From the IMG/VR virus record IMGVR_UViG_3300037067_021792: DNA of 64,000 nt. One strand, given 5' to 3'. This document shows positions 18,050 to 23,785 of this stretch, piece by piece. The notes under the pieces were generated by a model. That model did not search any database. It was given only the letters and a program-made list of their open reading frames with translations, and was not told the origin of the DNA. Numbering within the stretch: the stretch's first letter is position 1; each line of letters begins with the position of its first letter. Source of the stretch: a virus (Duplodnaviria; Caudoviricetes). The translations under genes and the position numbers were made by a program.

Positions 18050-18380
18050 AATAACAGTGGTTAAAATTGTGGATCAACAAATTACCGATATTGATCTAAT
18101 TCGGGATATTCTGGTATTTATTAAAGAAAAAGAGCTAGATTGTGCTGTAAGGCTCCTAGAGCAAAACTTATTTAATAAAGTTAGAATTGTAAATATCGAT
18201 GGAGACGATATTACTTGTCATATTATTAAATCCAGTGCCTGTTTAAAAAAACACATAAAAATTTCTGATATAGCATATTTAGAATTAACAACCGAAGATA
18301 GGATATTGAATAACTTTAAACCAGGCACCACTAGATGGAATTTATTGAGTGCTAGTGATATAGATGAAACAGGAATTTAA
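18030..18380 (+). CDS. hypothetical protein
   Basis: Coupled ORF. Confidence 0.65.
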   Translation: MRYVANKITVVKIVDQQITDIDLIRDILVFIKEKELDCAVRLLEQNLFNKVRIVNIDGDDITCHIIKSSACLKKHIKISDIAYLELTTEDRILNNFKPGTTRWNLLSASDIDETGI

Positions 18381-19672
18381 TGGTAGATTTTGTACATATA
18401 CATTCGCATTCGTCATTTTCAAAATTCGATGGCTTTTCTAAGATAGATGATACCCTAGACAAAGATGATAACATCGTCATGCCTGGCATAGTTGGCACAG
18501 CCAAGCGAATGGGCATGCCAGCAGTCGCGCTAACAGACCACGGCACCGTTGCCGGAGCAATTACATTCTTAAAAGCTTGTCGTAAGGGTGATGTAGGTAT
18601 CAAACCCATTCTGGGAATGGAAGCATACCAATCCAGAGATCACGCGTGCCATTCTACGGAAGGGCAACCAGATAAACGGCGAGGCAACAGGCATGTAATT
18701 ATCTTGGCGAAGAACTCTCAGGGATATGCCAATCTGTGCACATTATCTCAGATAGCATCCCTCGAAGGATACCATTATGATCCTCGTATTGATATCGATC
18801 TGCTCGATAAATATAAAGAGGGGCTGATTGTTTCGACCGCATGTTTATCAAATGTTGTTAACTGGAATCTATCCATAGACAGATACGAAAAAGCAAAAGC
18901 AGCAGCAGCAATCTACAAGGATATTTTTGGAGATGATTTTTATCTTGAAATGATGTATCATGGACTAGATTTGGAAGCAAAAGTATTGCCAGGTATACAA
19001 AAAATTTCCAAAGAACTCAATGTCAAATCTATTGTGACAAATGACTGTCATTATGTTGAAAAATCGCATGCTAAGTATCATGAAACGCTTATGTGTATGA
19101 GTTCGGGACGATCCATTAAAGACCCTAAACATATTAAGTTTCCATACGATGAATTTTATTTCAAATCTGGCGACGAAATGGCTGAGGTGTTCGGCCATCT
19201 GCCAAGGTCAATGGCTAATACATTAGAAATTGCTGAAAAATGTGATTACTCTGATATGAATCTCGGGCAGAGAATGTTATTGCCTAAATTTGATCTACCA
19301 GAAGGATATGCGCTTTCATTTGATTATCTAAAAGACATGGCGTGGAAAGGACTACAATCGAAAGGATTAAATGATTCAGTTCCTCACCGAGAGAGACTTC
19401 AGAGAGAACTTGATGATGTCAAGTTGATTTGGGATACACAAAAATTTGGATTTGATACATATTTTCTAATAGTGCGTGATATAATTGAATTTACTCGCAG
19501 AAAGAAAATACCCGGCGGTATTAGAGGTTCGGGATACGGATCTTTACTTTTGTACTGTCTCGGTATATCAGAAGGCGTAGACCCAGTGCGATACAATCTC
19601 CTTTGGGAACGGTTTTTGGGATTTGAATGGGCTTATAAACTATTTCGATCTGATTTTGGCATAAAAGATTGA
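18380..19672 (+). CDS. dnaE: DNA polymerase III alpha, N-terminal part (PHP domain + start of palm)
   Basis: FVHIHSHS, ALTDHG, KPILGMEAY, TNDCHY, RGSGYGSL, LLWERFL. Confidence 0.92.
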   Translation: MVDFVHIHSHSSFSKFDGFSKIDDTLDKDDNIVMPGIVGTAKRMGMPAVALTDHGTVAGAITFLKACRKGDVGIKPILGMEAYQSRDHACHSTEGQPDKRRGNRHVIILAKNSQGYANLCTLSQIASLEGYHYDPRIDIDLLDKYKEGLIVSTACLSNVVNWNLSIDRYEKAKAAAAIYKDIFGDDFYLEMMYHGLDLEAKVLPGIQKISKELNVKSIVTNDCHYVEKSHAKYHETLMCMSSGRSIKDPKHIKFPYDEFYFKSGDEMAEVFGHLPRSMANTLEIAEKCDYSDMNLGQRMLLPKFDLPEGYALSFDYLKDMAWKGLQSKGLNDSVPHRERLQRELDDVKLIWDTQKFGFDTYFLIVRDIIEFTRRKKIPGGIRGSGYGSLLLYCLGISEGVDPVRYNLLWERFLGFEWAYKLFRSDFGIKD

Positions 19673-19697: not shown

Positions 19698-20090
19698 GTG
19701 AACATGCTTAATATAGTCGTGACAACACCAAAATCTGAATTAGAAAATTCCAAACAAGAAGCTACTCGATGTCTCAATAATGGGGGTGGATACTATTTTC
19801 GCAGATTACCAACGCGTCCCAAAAATATAGATGTTGGGAGCAAAATATTCTATGTGGAGGATGGGTATATTCGCGGGTTTGGTGTCATAAGTGATATTGA
19901 AGACAAATCAGACGGTATGGAATGTTCTACAACGGGGACTAAGTGGCGTCCCGGCACATATGTTACCATCCCGGCTGATTCGTGGAAATGGATTAAACCG
20001 ATTCCAATGAAGGGGTTTCAGGGCTGGAGATATTTAAATAATGTAGAAGTTGAGATTGTTGGGGGATGGAAAGATCCTAAACCGGAGTGA
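19698..20090 (+). CDS. ASCH/PUA-like domain protein
   Basis: VGSKIFY..G.I.G.G.I and C-terminal PIPMKGFQGWRY resemble ASCH/PUA superfamily signatures. Confidence 0.55.
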   Translation: MNMLNIVVTTPKSELENSKQEATRCLNNGGGYYFRRLPTRPKNIDVGSKIFYVEDGYIRGFGVISDIEDKSDGMECSTTGTKWRPGTYVTIPADSWKWIKPIPMKGFQGWRYLNNVEVEIVGGWKDPKPE

Positions 20091-20092
20091 AT

Positions 20093-23000
20093 ATGTCTAA
20101 AGAACGAGATAGGGTAGTATCTATAGTAAAAGAAATAAATCCACCCGAGCTGATATCTCAGAAAGATAGATTAAATTCTGAATTATCCAGAATGGATGAT
20201 ATGGGGGTTCTGCCTAATCTGCTATCAATATACGACGATATTAAAAAGAATCCAAATCTAAAAGGAAACACAAACGTCCCTAATTCGCTTCTAGTATATT
20301 GTATGGGTATCACATCAAAACATCCGGATGGGGAATTTACTCTTGAAAAACGACGAGTTTATGGCAGAGATGGATGGCCAGATATTGATATGGATTTCTG
20401 TTATGAACGCAGGCATGAGGTTATAGAGTATTTAATTGAGAAATATGGTCGAGATAAAGTTGCAAATATAGGAACCGTGCAAACTCTAAAAACTAAATCT
20501 GCTTTGCGTCGTGTCATCCGGGCAGTAGATCCGGAAGGGTCTGTGGCCCAGGGTGATCCGAGTAGAAATTTTCAATTTCAAAATGAAATTCTTAATACTC
20601 TTCCCAAATCCAGTATCATGAAAAGAGCGGATGGAACAATCATAGAAGATCTACAGCAAGCATATGATGAGTTCTCAGAATTTCGAAGATATATGGACAA
20701 ATATCCACAAGTATTCGAAATGGCAAAAAATTTAGAAGGTGGCATTTCTGCATGGGGCGCACATGCAGCCGGAATTGTAATATCTCCAATACCCCTGTCT
20801 GAAATATGTCCGTTGCATGTCACAAAAGGAATGGCAGATGATGACACGGCAGAAAAGACCGAATACCAGCCAGAAAAAATGGTTGCTACTCAGTTCTCAA
20901 TGAGCGATGTGGAATCTGTCGGACTTATTAAAATGGATATCCTCGGTTTATCTACCAAGACTGCTATTAATTTAGCTGTAGAGTTAATCAAACAAAACCA
21001 CAGCATCGATGTAGATGTCGCTAATATTCCATTGGATGACAAATTGACTATCAATTTGCTGAAATCAGGACACACCGATGGATGCTTCCAATTAGAAGAA
21101 GTTGGCATGAAGCAAACTATCCAACAAATTGACATAGACTCTTTCGGCGATTTAATGATAGCAATAGCAATGTATAGACCGGGGCCCAAAGACTATATAC
21201 CAGAGATTGCCAGTCGTAAAAAGGGGCAGAAAAAGATTGATTATCCCCATCCTCTTATGGAAAAAATAACCAAAGAAACCTACGGTATTATGTCTTATCA
21301 AGAGGAGGTTATGCAAGTTTTTATGTCACTTGCTGATCTACCACCATCAGAGGGATACACTTTCATGAAAGGTTGTGCTAAGAAGAAAAAGAAATTAATT
21401 CAAGATGCTAAGGATAAATTTATTAAAGGAGCTGTTGCCCGTGGTGTGCCTAAACAGACAGTTCAAAAAATATGGGGGGACATGGAAAAATTCGGTGGAT
21501 ATGCCTTCAACAAGTCACTGTCCCACAACGAGAAAATCATAACCTCCGAAAAGGACCTCTCTATCCAAGAATTGTATAATAGAAAGACCAGAGGAGAAAA
21601 ACTGCCGAATGTATATAGTCCAGACGGAAAATCAATTAGAATTGCAGATGTATACGATCATGGTGTAATTCCTGTTTGGGAGGTTATATTTAGTGACGGA
21701 AGTATTCATAAATGCTCGATGAATCACAGATTTTTAACCACTAGCGGCGTTCTGCCTCTGCATGATATTTTAAAACATAAAGTATCAGTTATACAGAATG
21801 CGGAGATATTACATGCCCAAAAGGAAAGATTGGATTTGTTCAGGATGCCAGGCTCTTTTGACGAACCGCCGGCTTTTCGATGTCCACAAACGGGAATGCA
21901 AGAAGTACCATCTAAGCAAAAAACACTTCGAATGCCAGGGTTGCTATCAGAAGTTTACAAAAAGGGGACTGTGGAAGCACAAGAGAGAATGTGCTCTGTG
22001 GAAATCTCTCAAATCAGACCACTACTCACAACCAAACTCAATAAATTCAAGAAAATTTTGGGATCAAATACACCAGGATCCTACACAAATGGAGGCATAC
22101 AAAAACAAGGTGTCGATATCGGTATCGTTGTCGATTCTTGCAAATCAAACAGAGAGACAGCGCAGGTCAATATTGATGTCCAAATTAAACCAGAATTATT
22201 ACGATCTATTTCAAAAAAATCGATCCGACACAGCAGCAAAAACATCCGCAAGACCGGACATACAAAAGCAAAGAGCCATGCGATTGAAGAAATGGAGAGA
22301 AGAGAATCCCGAGAAGTTTATGAAAATAATCAGCAGTTGGCAATCAGCCCCGGAATGCATGCTCAAAACTATATTGTTGCCAATGGGATTCAAACATTCT
22401 CAAATAGTGAAAAGTCAAAAGTTTACATCCAAGTCAAAAAGAAGACAAATAGATTTTATGGATCAATCCCGCAAAATAGTAGTAGAATACGATGGACAGT
22501 ATCATTTCTCGAACAGAGATGCTCTCAGATTCAACCAAGAGAAACAAAAGGATTTGGAGGTAAATCAGGTTCTTTGCAGCAGAGGATATCTAGTGATACG
22601 AATGTCTTACGATGTATGGAGGTATTCCAAAAAAGAGTTCAAAAACGAAGCTTTAGGAATTCTTTTCAACCTGATTTGCAATTGCTCAGAAAGAAGTATA
22701 GTCAAAACAATTGGAAAGAAGTACAAATCATAGGTATAAAATACGTAGGGATGGAACAATGTTATGATTTGGAAGTGGACAGTCCAGAGCATCTTTATTG
22801 TTTGTCATCGGGTATTATTAATAGCAATTCTCATGCCTGCGCTTATGCATATGAAAGTTGGAAAACTGCGTATCTAAAGGCCCACTTTCCTGTTGAATTT
22901 GTTTCGGCCCGTATGACTGTTGAAGCTAAACGCAGAAAATTTGATTATGTAGAGAAGTGCGAAAGAGATGCCACTAGTCATTTTGGCATTAAAATACTCC

Positions 23001-23341
23001 CTATAGATTTGAATAAGTCCAAGATGTCATATACAATAACAGGGGACAAAGAGTTGCGTAGACCTTTGATTATTAAAGATATTGGTGATAAGGCTGCTGA
23101 AGAGATAATTAAACACCAACCTTATGATGTTCAGGACTTGTTTTATTCGTTTGCTTCTGTGGTTGGTCCCGCTGTTAACACCAGAGTTATTGAGGCATTA
23201 TGTGATGCCAAATTATTCGGTGACATAAAGAAAGCTAAAGCTTTGAAAGATTTCGATGATATCAAGAACGATAGAAAGAAATCAGTGGGCAGGCAAACTG
23301 GGGATATTTTTGGCTCTAACCGTGTATCCCGGAAAAAATAA
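20093..23341 (+). CDS. dnaE: DNA polymerase III alpha, catalytic part, intein-containing precursor
   Basis: PDIDMDF, HAAGIVI, GLIKMDILGL, GCFQLE, YRPGP, YQEEVMQ, YAFNK|SHA, YLKAHFP; GGAG SD before ATG 20093; no C-terminal OB domain. Confidence 0.92.
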   Translation: MSKERDRVVSIVKEINPPELISQKDRLNSELSRMDDMGVLPNLLSIYDDIKKNPNLKGNTNVPNSLLVYCMGITSKHPDGEFTLEKRRVYGRDGWPDIDMDFCYERRHEVIEYLIEKYGRDKVANIGTVQTLKTKSALRRVIRAVDPEGSVAQGDPSRNFQFQNEILNTLPKSSIMKRADGTIIEDLQQAYDEFSEFRRYMDKYPQVFEMAKNLEGGISAWGAHAAGIVISPIPLSEICPLHVTKGMADDDTAEKTEYQPEKMVATQFSMSDVESVGLIKMDILGLSTKTAINLAVELIKQNHSIDVDVANIPLDDKLTINLLKSGHTDGCFQLEEVGMKQTIQQIDIDSFGDLMIAIAMYRPGPKDYIPEIASRKKGQKKIDYPHPLMEKITKETYGIMSYQEEVMQVFMSLADLPPSEGYTFMKGCAKKKKKLIQDAKDKFIKGAVARGVPKQTVQKIWGDMEKFGGYAFNKSLSHNEKIITSEKDLSIQELYNRKTRGEKLPNVYSPDGKSIRIADVYDHGVIPVWEVIFSDGSIHKCSMNHRFLTTSGVLPLHDILKHKVSVIQNAEILHAQKERLDLFRMPGSFDEPPAFRCPQTGMQEVPSKQKTLRMPGLLSEVYKKGTVEAQERMCSVEISQIRPLLTTKLNKFKKILGSNTPGSYTNGGIQKQGVDIGIVVDSCKSNRETAQVNIDVQIKPELLRSISKKSIRHSSKNIRKTGHTKAKSHAIEEMERRESREVYENNQQLAISPGMHAQNYIVANGIQTFSNSEKSKVYIQVKKKTNRFYGSIPQNSSRIRWTVSFLEQRCSQIQPRETKGFGGKSGSLQQRISSDTNVLRCMEVFQKRVQKRSFRNSFQPDLQLLRKKYSQNNWKEVQIIGIKYVGMEQCYDLEVDSPEHLYCLSSGIINSNSHACAYAYESWKTAYLKAHFPVEFVSARMTVEAKRRKFDYVEKCERDATSHFGIKILPIDLNKSKMSYTITGDKELRRPLIIKDIGDKAAEEIIKHQPYDVQDLFYSFASVVGPAVNTRVIEALCDAKLFGDIKKAKALKDFDDIKNDRKKSVGRQTGDIFGSNRVSRKK
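21515..22828 (+). mobile_element. intein (438 aa) in DnaE at FNK|SH, no in-frame endonuclease
   Basis: Starts SLSHNE, block B CSMNHRF, block F CYDLEV..HLY, ends SGIINSN then Ser; excision restores GYAFNKSHA. Confidence 0.92.
21813..22733 (+). CDS. Zn-finger + Vsr/DUF559-like endonuclease overprinted in the +1 frame within the DnaE intein
   Basis: GGAG 21802-21805, 7 nt before ATG 21813; two CxxC-x12-H-x3-C repeats; SAPE, IDF, IVVEYDGQYH, KD, GYLVIR nuclease motifs. Confidence 0.85.
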   Translation: MPKRKDWICSGCQALLTNRRLFDVHKRECKKYHLSKKHFECQGCYQKFTKRGLWKHKRECALWKSLKSDHYSQPNSINSRKFWDQIHQDPTQMEAYKNKVSISVSLSILANQTERQRRSILMSKLNQNYYDLFQKNRSDTAAKTSARPDIQKQRAMRLKKWREENPEKFMKIISSWQSAPECMLKTILLPMGFKHSQIVKSQKFTSKSKRRQIDFMDQSRKIVVEYDGQYHFSNRDALRFNQEKQKDLEVNQVLCSRGYLVIRMSYDVWRYSKKEFKNEALGILFNLICNCSERSIVKTIGKKYKS

Positions 23342-23383
23342 TTTCAAAAATTTTCAGATTTTTCGCCAAATCGTAAAATTCTG

Positions 23384-23398
23384 TTGTATAATAGAAAG
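23384..23398 (+). promoter_or_regulatory. putative promoter -10 element (TTGTATAAT)
   Basis: Intergenic, upstream of AGGAG and GTG 23423; same motif at 29663 and 47695. Confidence 0.55.
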
Positions 23399-23422
23399 TA
23401 TTAAGTAAATAGGAGATATTCC

Positions 23423-23785
23423 GTGGGTAATGAAGGATTGCAGACTGAAAAAGATACTGACGTAGATCACACCTCTCAAGTAATCGAAACAACAAAAAAA
23501 CGACAAGGTAGAATCAGGATGGGTATTCAGCGCACCCTGCCTACTGCTCGTTTTGAAAGCGTTGTTATCCATTATGAAATTGATGAAGAAATTGCTTGGG
23601 ATAAGACAGAAGAACGATACAGTAAAGTAATGAATTGGGAGGCAGTTTTGGCCAAAGAATTCAAAGTGATTCATGATAAGGTATTGGAAGAACTGGAATT
23701 GACACACAAGAGAGCCTACTTCAAAGACAACAGACCAGAACCTTATCCAGAGAATAGACTTGACGATCTTGATTCACTAGACTAG
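23423..23785 (+). CDS. hypothetical protein
   Basis: AGGAG SD, GTG start. Confidence 0.75.
   Translation: MGNEGLQTEKDTDVDHTSQVIETTKKRQGRIRMGIQRTLPTARFESVVIHYEIDEEIAWDKTEERYSKVMNWEAVLAKEFKVIHDKVLEELELTHKRAYFKDNRPEPYPENRLDDLDSLD

Follow-up and report, generated by a model that had tools for sequence, protein, structure and literature searches.

A homing-endonuclease-type gene nested out of frame in a DnaE intein of an uncultured phage

The dnaE locus, its intein and the nested nuclease gene

This study concerns a stretch of 64,000 nucleotides (hereafter the window) from a virus of the Caudoviricetes (IMG/VR record IMGVR_UViG_3300037067_021792), in which a nuclease gene of the homing-endonuclease type lies inside an intein of the gene for the DNA polymerase III alpha subunit (dnaE) and is read in another frame. 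The window is part of a contig of 270,634 bp, has a GC content of 37% and carries all its long open reading frames (ORFs) on the + strand; it looks like part of a large uncultured phage. Judged from codon patterns in the window and its relatives, selection against stop codons in the dnaE frame across the nuclease gene is strong and is seen only where the intein is contiguous. The original prediction had placed the nuclease ORF at 21813-22733, in +1 relation to the dnaE frame, and these coordinates and frames were correct. The features on which the argument rests are the following.

20087..23341, + strand: C-terminal gene of dnaE (polymerase III alpha palm/fingers and helix-hairpin-helix), host of the intein; a single uninterrupted frame of 1084 codons in the ORF list
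21515..22828, + strand: intein of 438 codons, from Ser1 to the terminal Asn, at the site ...GYAFNK / SHACAYA..., placed by alignments A1 and A3 and a motif search
21515..21817, + strand: N-terminal splicing domain of the intein (blocks A and B), residues 1-101
21802..21805, + strand: Shine-Dalgarno-like (SD-like) GGAG, 7 nt before the nuclease ATG
21813..22733 (ORF 21798/21813-22733), + strand: gene of the homing-endonuclease type (306 aa and a stop codon), read +1 to dnaE and the intein
21825..21998, + strand: two C2H2-like zinc fingers (nuclease residues ~5-62), a putative DNA-binding module, from profile and Foldseek matches
22305..22721, + strand: Vsr-like/EDxHD nuclease domain (residues ~165-303), with D214, E225, D227, H231 and D247 as predicted catalytic residues
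21818..22693, + strand: host-frame read-through linker (intein residues 102-393), stop-free, predicted to be unstructured and not conserved in sequence
22694..22733, + strand: dual-coded 3' end, where the nuclease C-terminus (..KTIGKKYKS) lies over the first strand of the intein C-terminal splicing region (..NNWKEVQI..)
22734..22828, + strand: remaining C-terminal splicing region (blocks F and G), ending in Asn, with 81% amino acid identity among close loci
22829..22831, + strand: codon of the +1 Ser, first residue of the C-extein (SHACAYA)

The product of the dnaE C-terminal gene contains the Pfam domains DNA_pol3_alpha, DNA_pol3_finger and HHH_6. Its intein begins with Ser1 in the window and with Ser, Thr or Cys across all 11 loci described below, that is, with the nucleophile of a class 1 intein. 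The block B motif (T/S)xxH reads S-M-N-H in the window, and its His is invariant in the alignments A1 and A3. The Asp/His of block F and the terminal Asn are invariant in A3, and the terminal Asn (N914) and the +1 Ser (S915) in the 15 proteins of A1. In the AlphaFold2 (AF2) model of the host-frame intein, the local distance difference test score that AF2 predicts (pLDDT), taken in ten-residue blocks, is 79-96 over residues 1-100 and 90-95 over residues 400-438, exceeding 90 from about residue 400, while the linker (residues 102-393) stays below 50 and shows no secondary structure. The model matches DnaE and DnaB mini-inteins, including those of Npu and Ssp DnaE, in Foldseek with E ~3e-6 and probability 1.0, as a Hint fold does. 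An Rfam scan of 21200-23100 found no group I or group II intron or other RNA family, only a sub-threshold snoRNA match (E = 0.39).

The nuclease matches Pfam DUF559 (E = 3e-5), and an exhaustive HMMER search found 188 homologues at E <= 1e-3, mostly of 250-350 aa. Its AF2 model has a mean pLDDT of 93.3. The N-terminal region matches the zinc fingers of CTCF both by profile (E = 1.6e-4) and by Foldseek, and the Cys/His columns of the fingers are invariant among five aligned embedded nucleases (A2). The middle region (residues 61-173) is helical. In a wide VIA-align search, residues 165-303 matched Vsr (1cw0, Z 11.8), a DUF559-type protein (3hrl, Z 10.4) and I-Bth0305I (3r3p, Z 9.7). The Foldseek match to Vsr was weak (E = 2.4e-3), and a profile search of PDB sequences with the nuclease retrieved zinc fingers only, neither 3R3P nor Vsr. 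The residues D214, E225, D227, H231 and D247 are invariant in a 40-sequence alignment (A4) and retained in all embedded loci. They fit the EDxHD motif (PMC3239194), so that the protein may be assigned to the EDxHD family of homing endonucleases, with activity and homing as predictions from its sequence.

An ATG stands at the conserved nuclease N-terminus in all close loci, and GGAG-type motifs lie 6-8 nt upstream of it in the window, L002, L004, L005, L015 and L016. A near-length protein search with the nuclease gave no match because the nested ORF is uncalled in relatives: gene callers keep the long dnaE ORF only, so the nested nuclease is absent from called-gene protein databases, and such nested elements are probably undercounted. 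Searches with blastn and tblastn against GenBank phages found nothing for the nuclease and only 55 nt of dnaE, and the nearest DnaE of a cultured phage is <40% identical.

Stop avoidance in the window and its relatives

Each intein-frame codon across the nuclease gene is made of base 3 of one nuclease codon and bases 1-2 of the next, and in this +1 relation a host-frame stop arises only from NNT followed by AA, AG or GA. Across the 307 nuclease codons, stops number 0 in the dnaE/intein frame and 20 in the third frame, the latter as expected. Two null models were compared with this result. When synonymous codons were resampled with the codon usage of the window (15,964 codons from 50 long ORFs), the mean was 29.4 stops and the minimum 15 in 20,000 shuffles; when the synonymous codons of the gene itself were permuted, the mean was 15.5 and the minimum 5, also in 20,000. 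Thus the synonymous shuffling that the original prediction had proposed as its check never produced a stop-free frame.

The avoidance can be read directly in the third bases. Before AA, AG or GA (106 nuclease codons), 0 codons end in T and 33% in C; among the other 200 codons, 29% end in T and 12.5% in C. The claim that NNT never precedes AA, AG or GA over about 307 codons therefore agrees with the count (0 of 106), and C-ending codons are not equally raised in all contexts, the outcome that would have spoken against it. The nine C-ending dicodons cited as examples (TTC GAT and others) are all present in the ORF. Within the two-fold boxes ending in a pyrimidine, the ratio is 22 C to 0 T before AA, AG or GA and 19 C to 37 T elsewhere (Fisher p = 1.8e-8). 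The genome does favour T-ending codons, as had been assumed: T takes 35.6% of third positions in the window codon usage, and C is the least used third base with 14.6%. Since NNT and NNC are always synonymous, keeping the frame open costs the nuclease protein nothing.

Related loci were collected in two ways. The intein region of the dnaE product, used as a query, matched 17 other proteins, the closest (P0002) being 69% identical over this region. In 14 of the 17 the alignment spans the linker, indicating a continuous frame, and the DNA was examined for four (L001-L004). A scan of IMG/VR with the single nuclease sequence found nothing, and a scan with the nuclease alignment found 14 more loci. 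In ten loci (L001-L005 and L013-L017), a homologous nuclease lies in +1 relation inside a DnaE intein at the site found in the window, with the junctions FNK / S/T/C ... N / SH in all embedded loci. The identity of these nucleases to that of the window goes down to about 27-30%, and the embedded arrangement spans two deep nuclease clades in a quick tree. Each of the ten relatives has 0 host-frame stops, against 12-24 expected, and no stop-free sequence appeared among 3,000 shuffles in any of the 11 embedded loci. Pooled over these 11 loci, T ends 0 of 1120 codons before AA, AG or GA and 717 of 2319 elsewhere (Fisher p ~1e-142), while C ends 29% of codons in risky contexts and 13% in others.

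Homologous alleles that are free-standing or fractured serve as built-in controls. Seven free-standing homologues (L006-L011 and L018) contain 27-56 stops in the corresponding frame and do not avoid T in the third position, which is 35% in risky and 37% in safe contexts. L019 is a fractured (split-intein) allele at the same DnaE site, whose nuclease is 47% identical to that of the window and has 32 stops in that frame. In L019 the frame of the N-part ends soon after the nuclease begins, and the C-intein restarts with Met in another frame. A host broken into two ORFs, as in fractured genes, was found in L019 only; the host frame is continuous in the window and its ten relatives. Other alleles add to this range. 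In P0028 the N-intein and a homologous nuclease form one in-frame fusion, and mini-inteins at the same DnaE site, from which most or all of the linker is gone, measure ~150 aa (P0018), ~184 aa (P0014) and ~215 aa (P0016). About 45 alignment columns are missing near the linker start in P0011. The alleles P0014, P0016, P0018 and P0011 look like in-frame deletions of the nuclease gene, as expected late in the homing cycle.

To see what is conserved in each frame, identities at codon positions were taken pairwise among six close loci.

Nuclease frame: identity at positions 1/2/3 of 0.62/0.73/0.41; amino acid identity 53%
Extein: identity at positions 1/2/3 of 0.65/0.75/0.37; amino acid identity 57%
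Host-frame linker: identity at positions 1/2/3 of 0.39/0.61/0.72; amino acid identity 26%

By these identities, the nuclease frame is under purifying selection and evolves like the extein. The pattern of the linker is inverted, so that its apparent homology is a by-product of nuclease conservation. By the same measure, the openness of the linker is selected and its amino acid sequence is not under purifying selection. The original prediction had argued for long-term dual coding. This holds in the sense that both frames are kept open, an arrangement conserved in 10 other assemblies; it does not hold for the core of ~290 codons, where the amino acid sequence of the host frame is not selected and only its openness is. 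True dual coding of two structured proteins is confined to the ends of the overlap: some 2 codons at its 5' end and some 13 at its 3' end, where the nuclease KTIGKKY and the intein strand NNW.EV.I are both conserved across the six loci.

A proposed explanation and its alternatives

We consider it highly probable that a homing endonuclease gene (HEG) of the free-standing type is overprinted in a contiguous DnaE intein, and that read-through of the overlap is needed for cis-splicing of an essential polymerase. In this explanation, the HEG would sit at the usual endonuclease insertion point of a class 1 intein in the essential dnaE of the phage, and its zinc fingers, helical region and Vsr-like/EDxHD nuclease would be read in the +1 frame from an SD and ATG of its own. 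The polymerase would be obtainable only if ribosomes translate the dnaE frame straight through the nuclease gene, and, since the polymerase needs this read-through, selection would purge every host-frame stop codon. In the resulting precursor, the N- and C-terminal splicing domains would be joined by an unstructured linker of ~290 residues, and the intein would splice in cis. The nuclease would be made by internal initiation and would promote homing into intein-less dnaE. That both frames are translated, that the nuclease is initiated internally, that the protein splices, and that the nuclease is active and homes are predictions of this explanation.

Several points weigh against this explanation. 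The penultimate residue of the intein is Ser, Arg or Ala in the lineage of the window, not the usual His, though L017 has His-Asn; a penultimate His is common in inteins, not universal. The SD motifs are weak in L001 and L003. Splicing of this particular intein is assumed on the basis that inteins in general tolerate large inserts at the endonuclease point. The origin of the arrangement is also hard to account for: an AT-rich nuclease gene that had only just been inserted would bring with it about 30-50 stops in this frame, and their removal one by one brings no obvious benefit until the last is gone. One possibility is a GC-rich ancestor in which the frame was open by chance.

The probability that the second frame is open merely through chance or through the composition of a Lys/Arg/Glu-rich gene is practically nil. 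Long alternative-frame ORFs do arise, mainly in GC-rich DNA, but the window has 37% GC, no stop-free outcome was reached in the 20,000 shuffles of either null model or in the 3,000 at each of the 11 loci, the third frame has its expected stops, and free-standing homologues of similar composition have 27-56. Nor is it credible, except at an extremely low probability, that an assembly or sequencing frameshift has displaced a nuclease that is really the in-frame domain of a canonical intein. Canonical inteins do carry their endonuclease in frame, as the fused allele P0028 does here, but two compensating errors would be required, and these would not explain why the supposedly wrong frame is free of stops. 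The same arrangement is found in 10 other assemblies from different samples. Between contigs of two sequencing runs (depths 33 and 82) there is no difference and no indel, though the two runs share an identical contig of 74,552 bases, one of them possibly being the source of the window, and may not be independent. A frameshift in the assembly, against which the original prediction had already argued, can thus be discounted. It is also very unlikely that the polymerase is produced by trans-splicing of two halves, with the open frame as a recent relic. The fractured allele L019, at the same site and with its C-intein ORF restarting with Met in another frame, favours this idea. On the other hand, trans-splicing would need no open frame, and a relic would gain stops fast (~30 per gene at equilibrium), yet an open frame is found across lineages with nuclease identities of only ~27-55%; in the lineage of the window there is no conserved Met for a restart ahead of the C-terminal splicing region.

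Two further alternatives concern the products of the two frames, and both are more probable than the preceding ones while still unlikely. The linker could be a functional polypeptide, for example a disordered modulator of splicing, of polymerase maturation or of partner binding, so that both frames would be selected throughout. Some host-frame columns are nearly invariant, and the linkers hold slightly more S/G/Q/N/P/T (mean z +1.6) and less K/R (mean z -1.5) than a synonymous null that avoids stops, a weak and model-dependent effect. The conserved columns, however, lie under conserved nuclease residues, the hydrophobic content equals that of the null, AF2 predicts no structure, and the first codon position is the least conserved (0.39) in the inverted pattern, with the low amino acid identity given above. 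Moreover, the mini-inteins do without most or all of the linker. We therefore regard a functional linker as improbable. Only marginally more credible is the production of the nuclease by programmed +1 ribosomal frameshifting, as a fusion of N-extein and N-intein with the nuclease, and not by independent initiation. The in-frame fusion in P0028 and the weak SD motifs of L001 and L003 are in line with such fusions, but the conserved ATG of the close loci and the GGAG-type motifs at 6-8 nt in six loci point to initiation at the nuclease itself, and no slippery site was identified. This alternative is not needed, bears on the expression of the nuclease only and leaves the openness of the host frame to be explained as before.

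Within the explanation by overprinting, a broader idea is offered more tentatively. Overprinting may be a stable third state of the symbiosis of intein and HEG, beside in-frame fusion and the split intein, in which an invading HEG persists for long inside an essential gene; we hold this to be possible, rather less likely than not to be the case. An indel in the HEG would also break DnaE, so that selection on the host gene would shield the HEG from decay by frameshift. If this idea is true, the locus would be a natural series for the gain, upkeep and loss of endonucleases by inteins.

Expression of the nuclease may also involve a promoter within the intein. The following feature is relevant here.

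21572..21586, + strand: 15-nt motif TTGTATAATAGAAAG, in the coding sequence of the intein, 227 nt before the nuclease ATG

TTGTATAATAGAAAG occurs a second time, without mismatch, at 23384-23398, in the intergenic stretch that follows dnaE. In all 6 close loci the intein has the core TGTATAAT at one and the same position, conserved as nucleotides, and the core recurs just downstream of dnaE in each of them, 27-82 nt before the next gene. Exactly two copies per locus were found in L001-L005; the window has the core in both of these places and in eight others on the + strand. From this distribution, TTGTATAATAGAAAG/TGTATAAT may be a promoter motif of the phage family, with the internal copy serving the nuclease. 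Two facts weaken the promoter reading. The intergenic copies share a T-rich upstream element that the internal copy does not have, and synonymous sites are unusually conserved over the whole N-terminal domain of the intein. A consensus promoter and terminator scan of 21300-23500 gave nothing above shuffles. As to the conservation of the N-domain (21515-21812 and its relatives), identity at four-fold third positions is 0.50, against 0.31 in the extein at similar amino acid identity. This could reflect a more recent common ancestry than that of the extein, by horizontal spread, or a constraint at the nucleotide level.

Comparison with known systems and other features of the locus

Inteins with an endonuclease in a separate frame or strand are already known. 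In the non-canonical inteins of actinobacteriophages (Gosselin, Gogarten et al., bioRxiv 10.1101/2025.01.02.630785), the homing endonuclease is antisense (LAGLIDADG and VSR-like) or in another frame (endonuclease VII-like). An origin by invasion of the intein by a free-standing HEG was proposed there, and gene callers were noted to miss such ORFs. As in those inteins, an endonuclease ORF is nested between the splicing blocks in the window, and the splicing frame passes over it with no stop. Their same-strand case is endonuclease VII-like and in 'frame 3', the VSR-like case is antisense, and they occur in GC-rich actinophages and in other extein genes. By contrast, our case is a same-strand +1 VSR-like/EDxHD nuclease with zinc fingers, in DnaE, from AT-rich (37% GC) uncultured phages with contigs of up to about 270 kb. 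A search for terms in the text of that study found no analysis of synonymous codons or codon usage. What is new here is thus the +1 form with EDxHD nuclease and zinc fingers in a DnaE intein, the signature of selection, and the coexistence of fractured, fused and mini alleles.

Fractured genes, in which a Vsr-like or GIY-YIG HEG lies between the halves of a split intein, have been described, with DnaE among their hosts (Dassa et al., 2009; PMC2677866). The locus resembles them in the Vsr-like family, the phage-type metagenomic source, the DnaE host and the position of the HEG at the endonuclease insertion point of the intein. It differs in that the host frame of fractured genes is interrupted and their intein acts in trans, whereas here the host frame is continuous and under selection. 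The model of that study foresees a return to a contiguous gene by in-frame endonuclease fusion only, not by overprinting. For the models in which free-standing endonucleases enter inteins (Dassa et al., 2009; bioRxiv 10.1101/2025.01.02.630785), the locus provides an intermediate that was missing.

The nuclease itself can be compared with I-Bth0305I, the prototype of the EDxHD family (Taylor et al., 2011; PMC3239194; PDB 3R3P). Both share the Vsr-like fold, with 96/98 residues aligned at the Z of 9.7 given above, the E-D-x-H-D residues and a two-part layout with the DNA-binding region at the N-terminus. I-Bth0305I is encoded in a group I intron of recA and has NUMOD and helix-turn-helix motifs, whereas the present nuclease gene is nested in an intein, in another frame, and its product carries a pair of C2H2-like zinc fingers. 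A comparable nesting is the ShiLan domain, an HNH endonuclease read out of frame within a DNA methylase gene of a phage (Arsenault et al., 2025; PMC11855218). The nested alternative-frame endonuclease ORF, the stop-free host frame and the loop predicted to be tolerated are common to both. The ShiLan case has no self-splicing domain, an HNH nuclease and a GTG start without a ribosome-binding site, in a Mycobacterium phage. Unlike there, the read-through peptide here would be removed with the intein.

The stop avoidance provides evolutionary, quantitative evidence that the read-through of an out-of-frame nuclease over ~290 residues is translated, and from it we infer splicing around the linker. 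A very large unstructured insert in an intein, together with the combination of zinc fingers and an EDxHD nuclease, could also interest protein engineers.

Polymerase III alpha is encoded in pieces in the window, and two ORFs precede the C-terminal gene.

18380-19672, + strand: PHP/N-terminal gene of dnaE
19698-20090, + strand: DUF1489-like ORF of 130 aa, wedged between the N-terminal gene and the C-terminal part

No intein ends are visible at the break of DnaE between 19672 and 20087. On the contig of P0002, a DUF1489-like gene lies ~1 kb upstream of the C-terminal part of dnaE, with an AAA_28 gene in between.

Among the relatives, DnaE has a second intein site (...EGSISAYG / C...VHN / (C/S)HAAG). 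The intein is contiguous there in P0004, P0010 and L005, and split in P0003, P0005, P0008, P0009, P0018 and L004, where the gene for the C-terminal part begins with the C-terminal intein half. At this site in L004, an upstream PHP gene and an ORF of 105 aa precede the C-terminal part, an order that resembles a classic fractured gene. The DnaE of L013 (L013:204-5237) has an additional intein, containing LAGLIDADG, upstream of the overprinted one, and the DnaE ORF of L017 (L017:357-4781) ends in a uracil-DNA glycosylase domain (PF03167, residues 1323-1449).

Finally, a variant contig of low depth from another landfill study (X4) differs from the window within the nuclease gene by T21997C and C22019T. 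The first changes Leu to Pro in the nuclease, as in relatives, and is synonymous in the host frame; the second turns GAC into GAT where the next codon begins with CA, which makes the context a safe one. No stop arises from either change.

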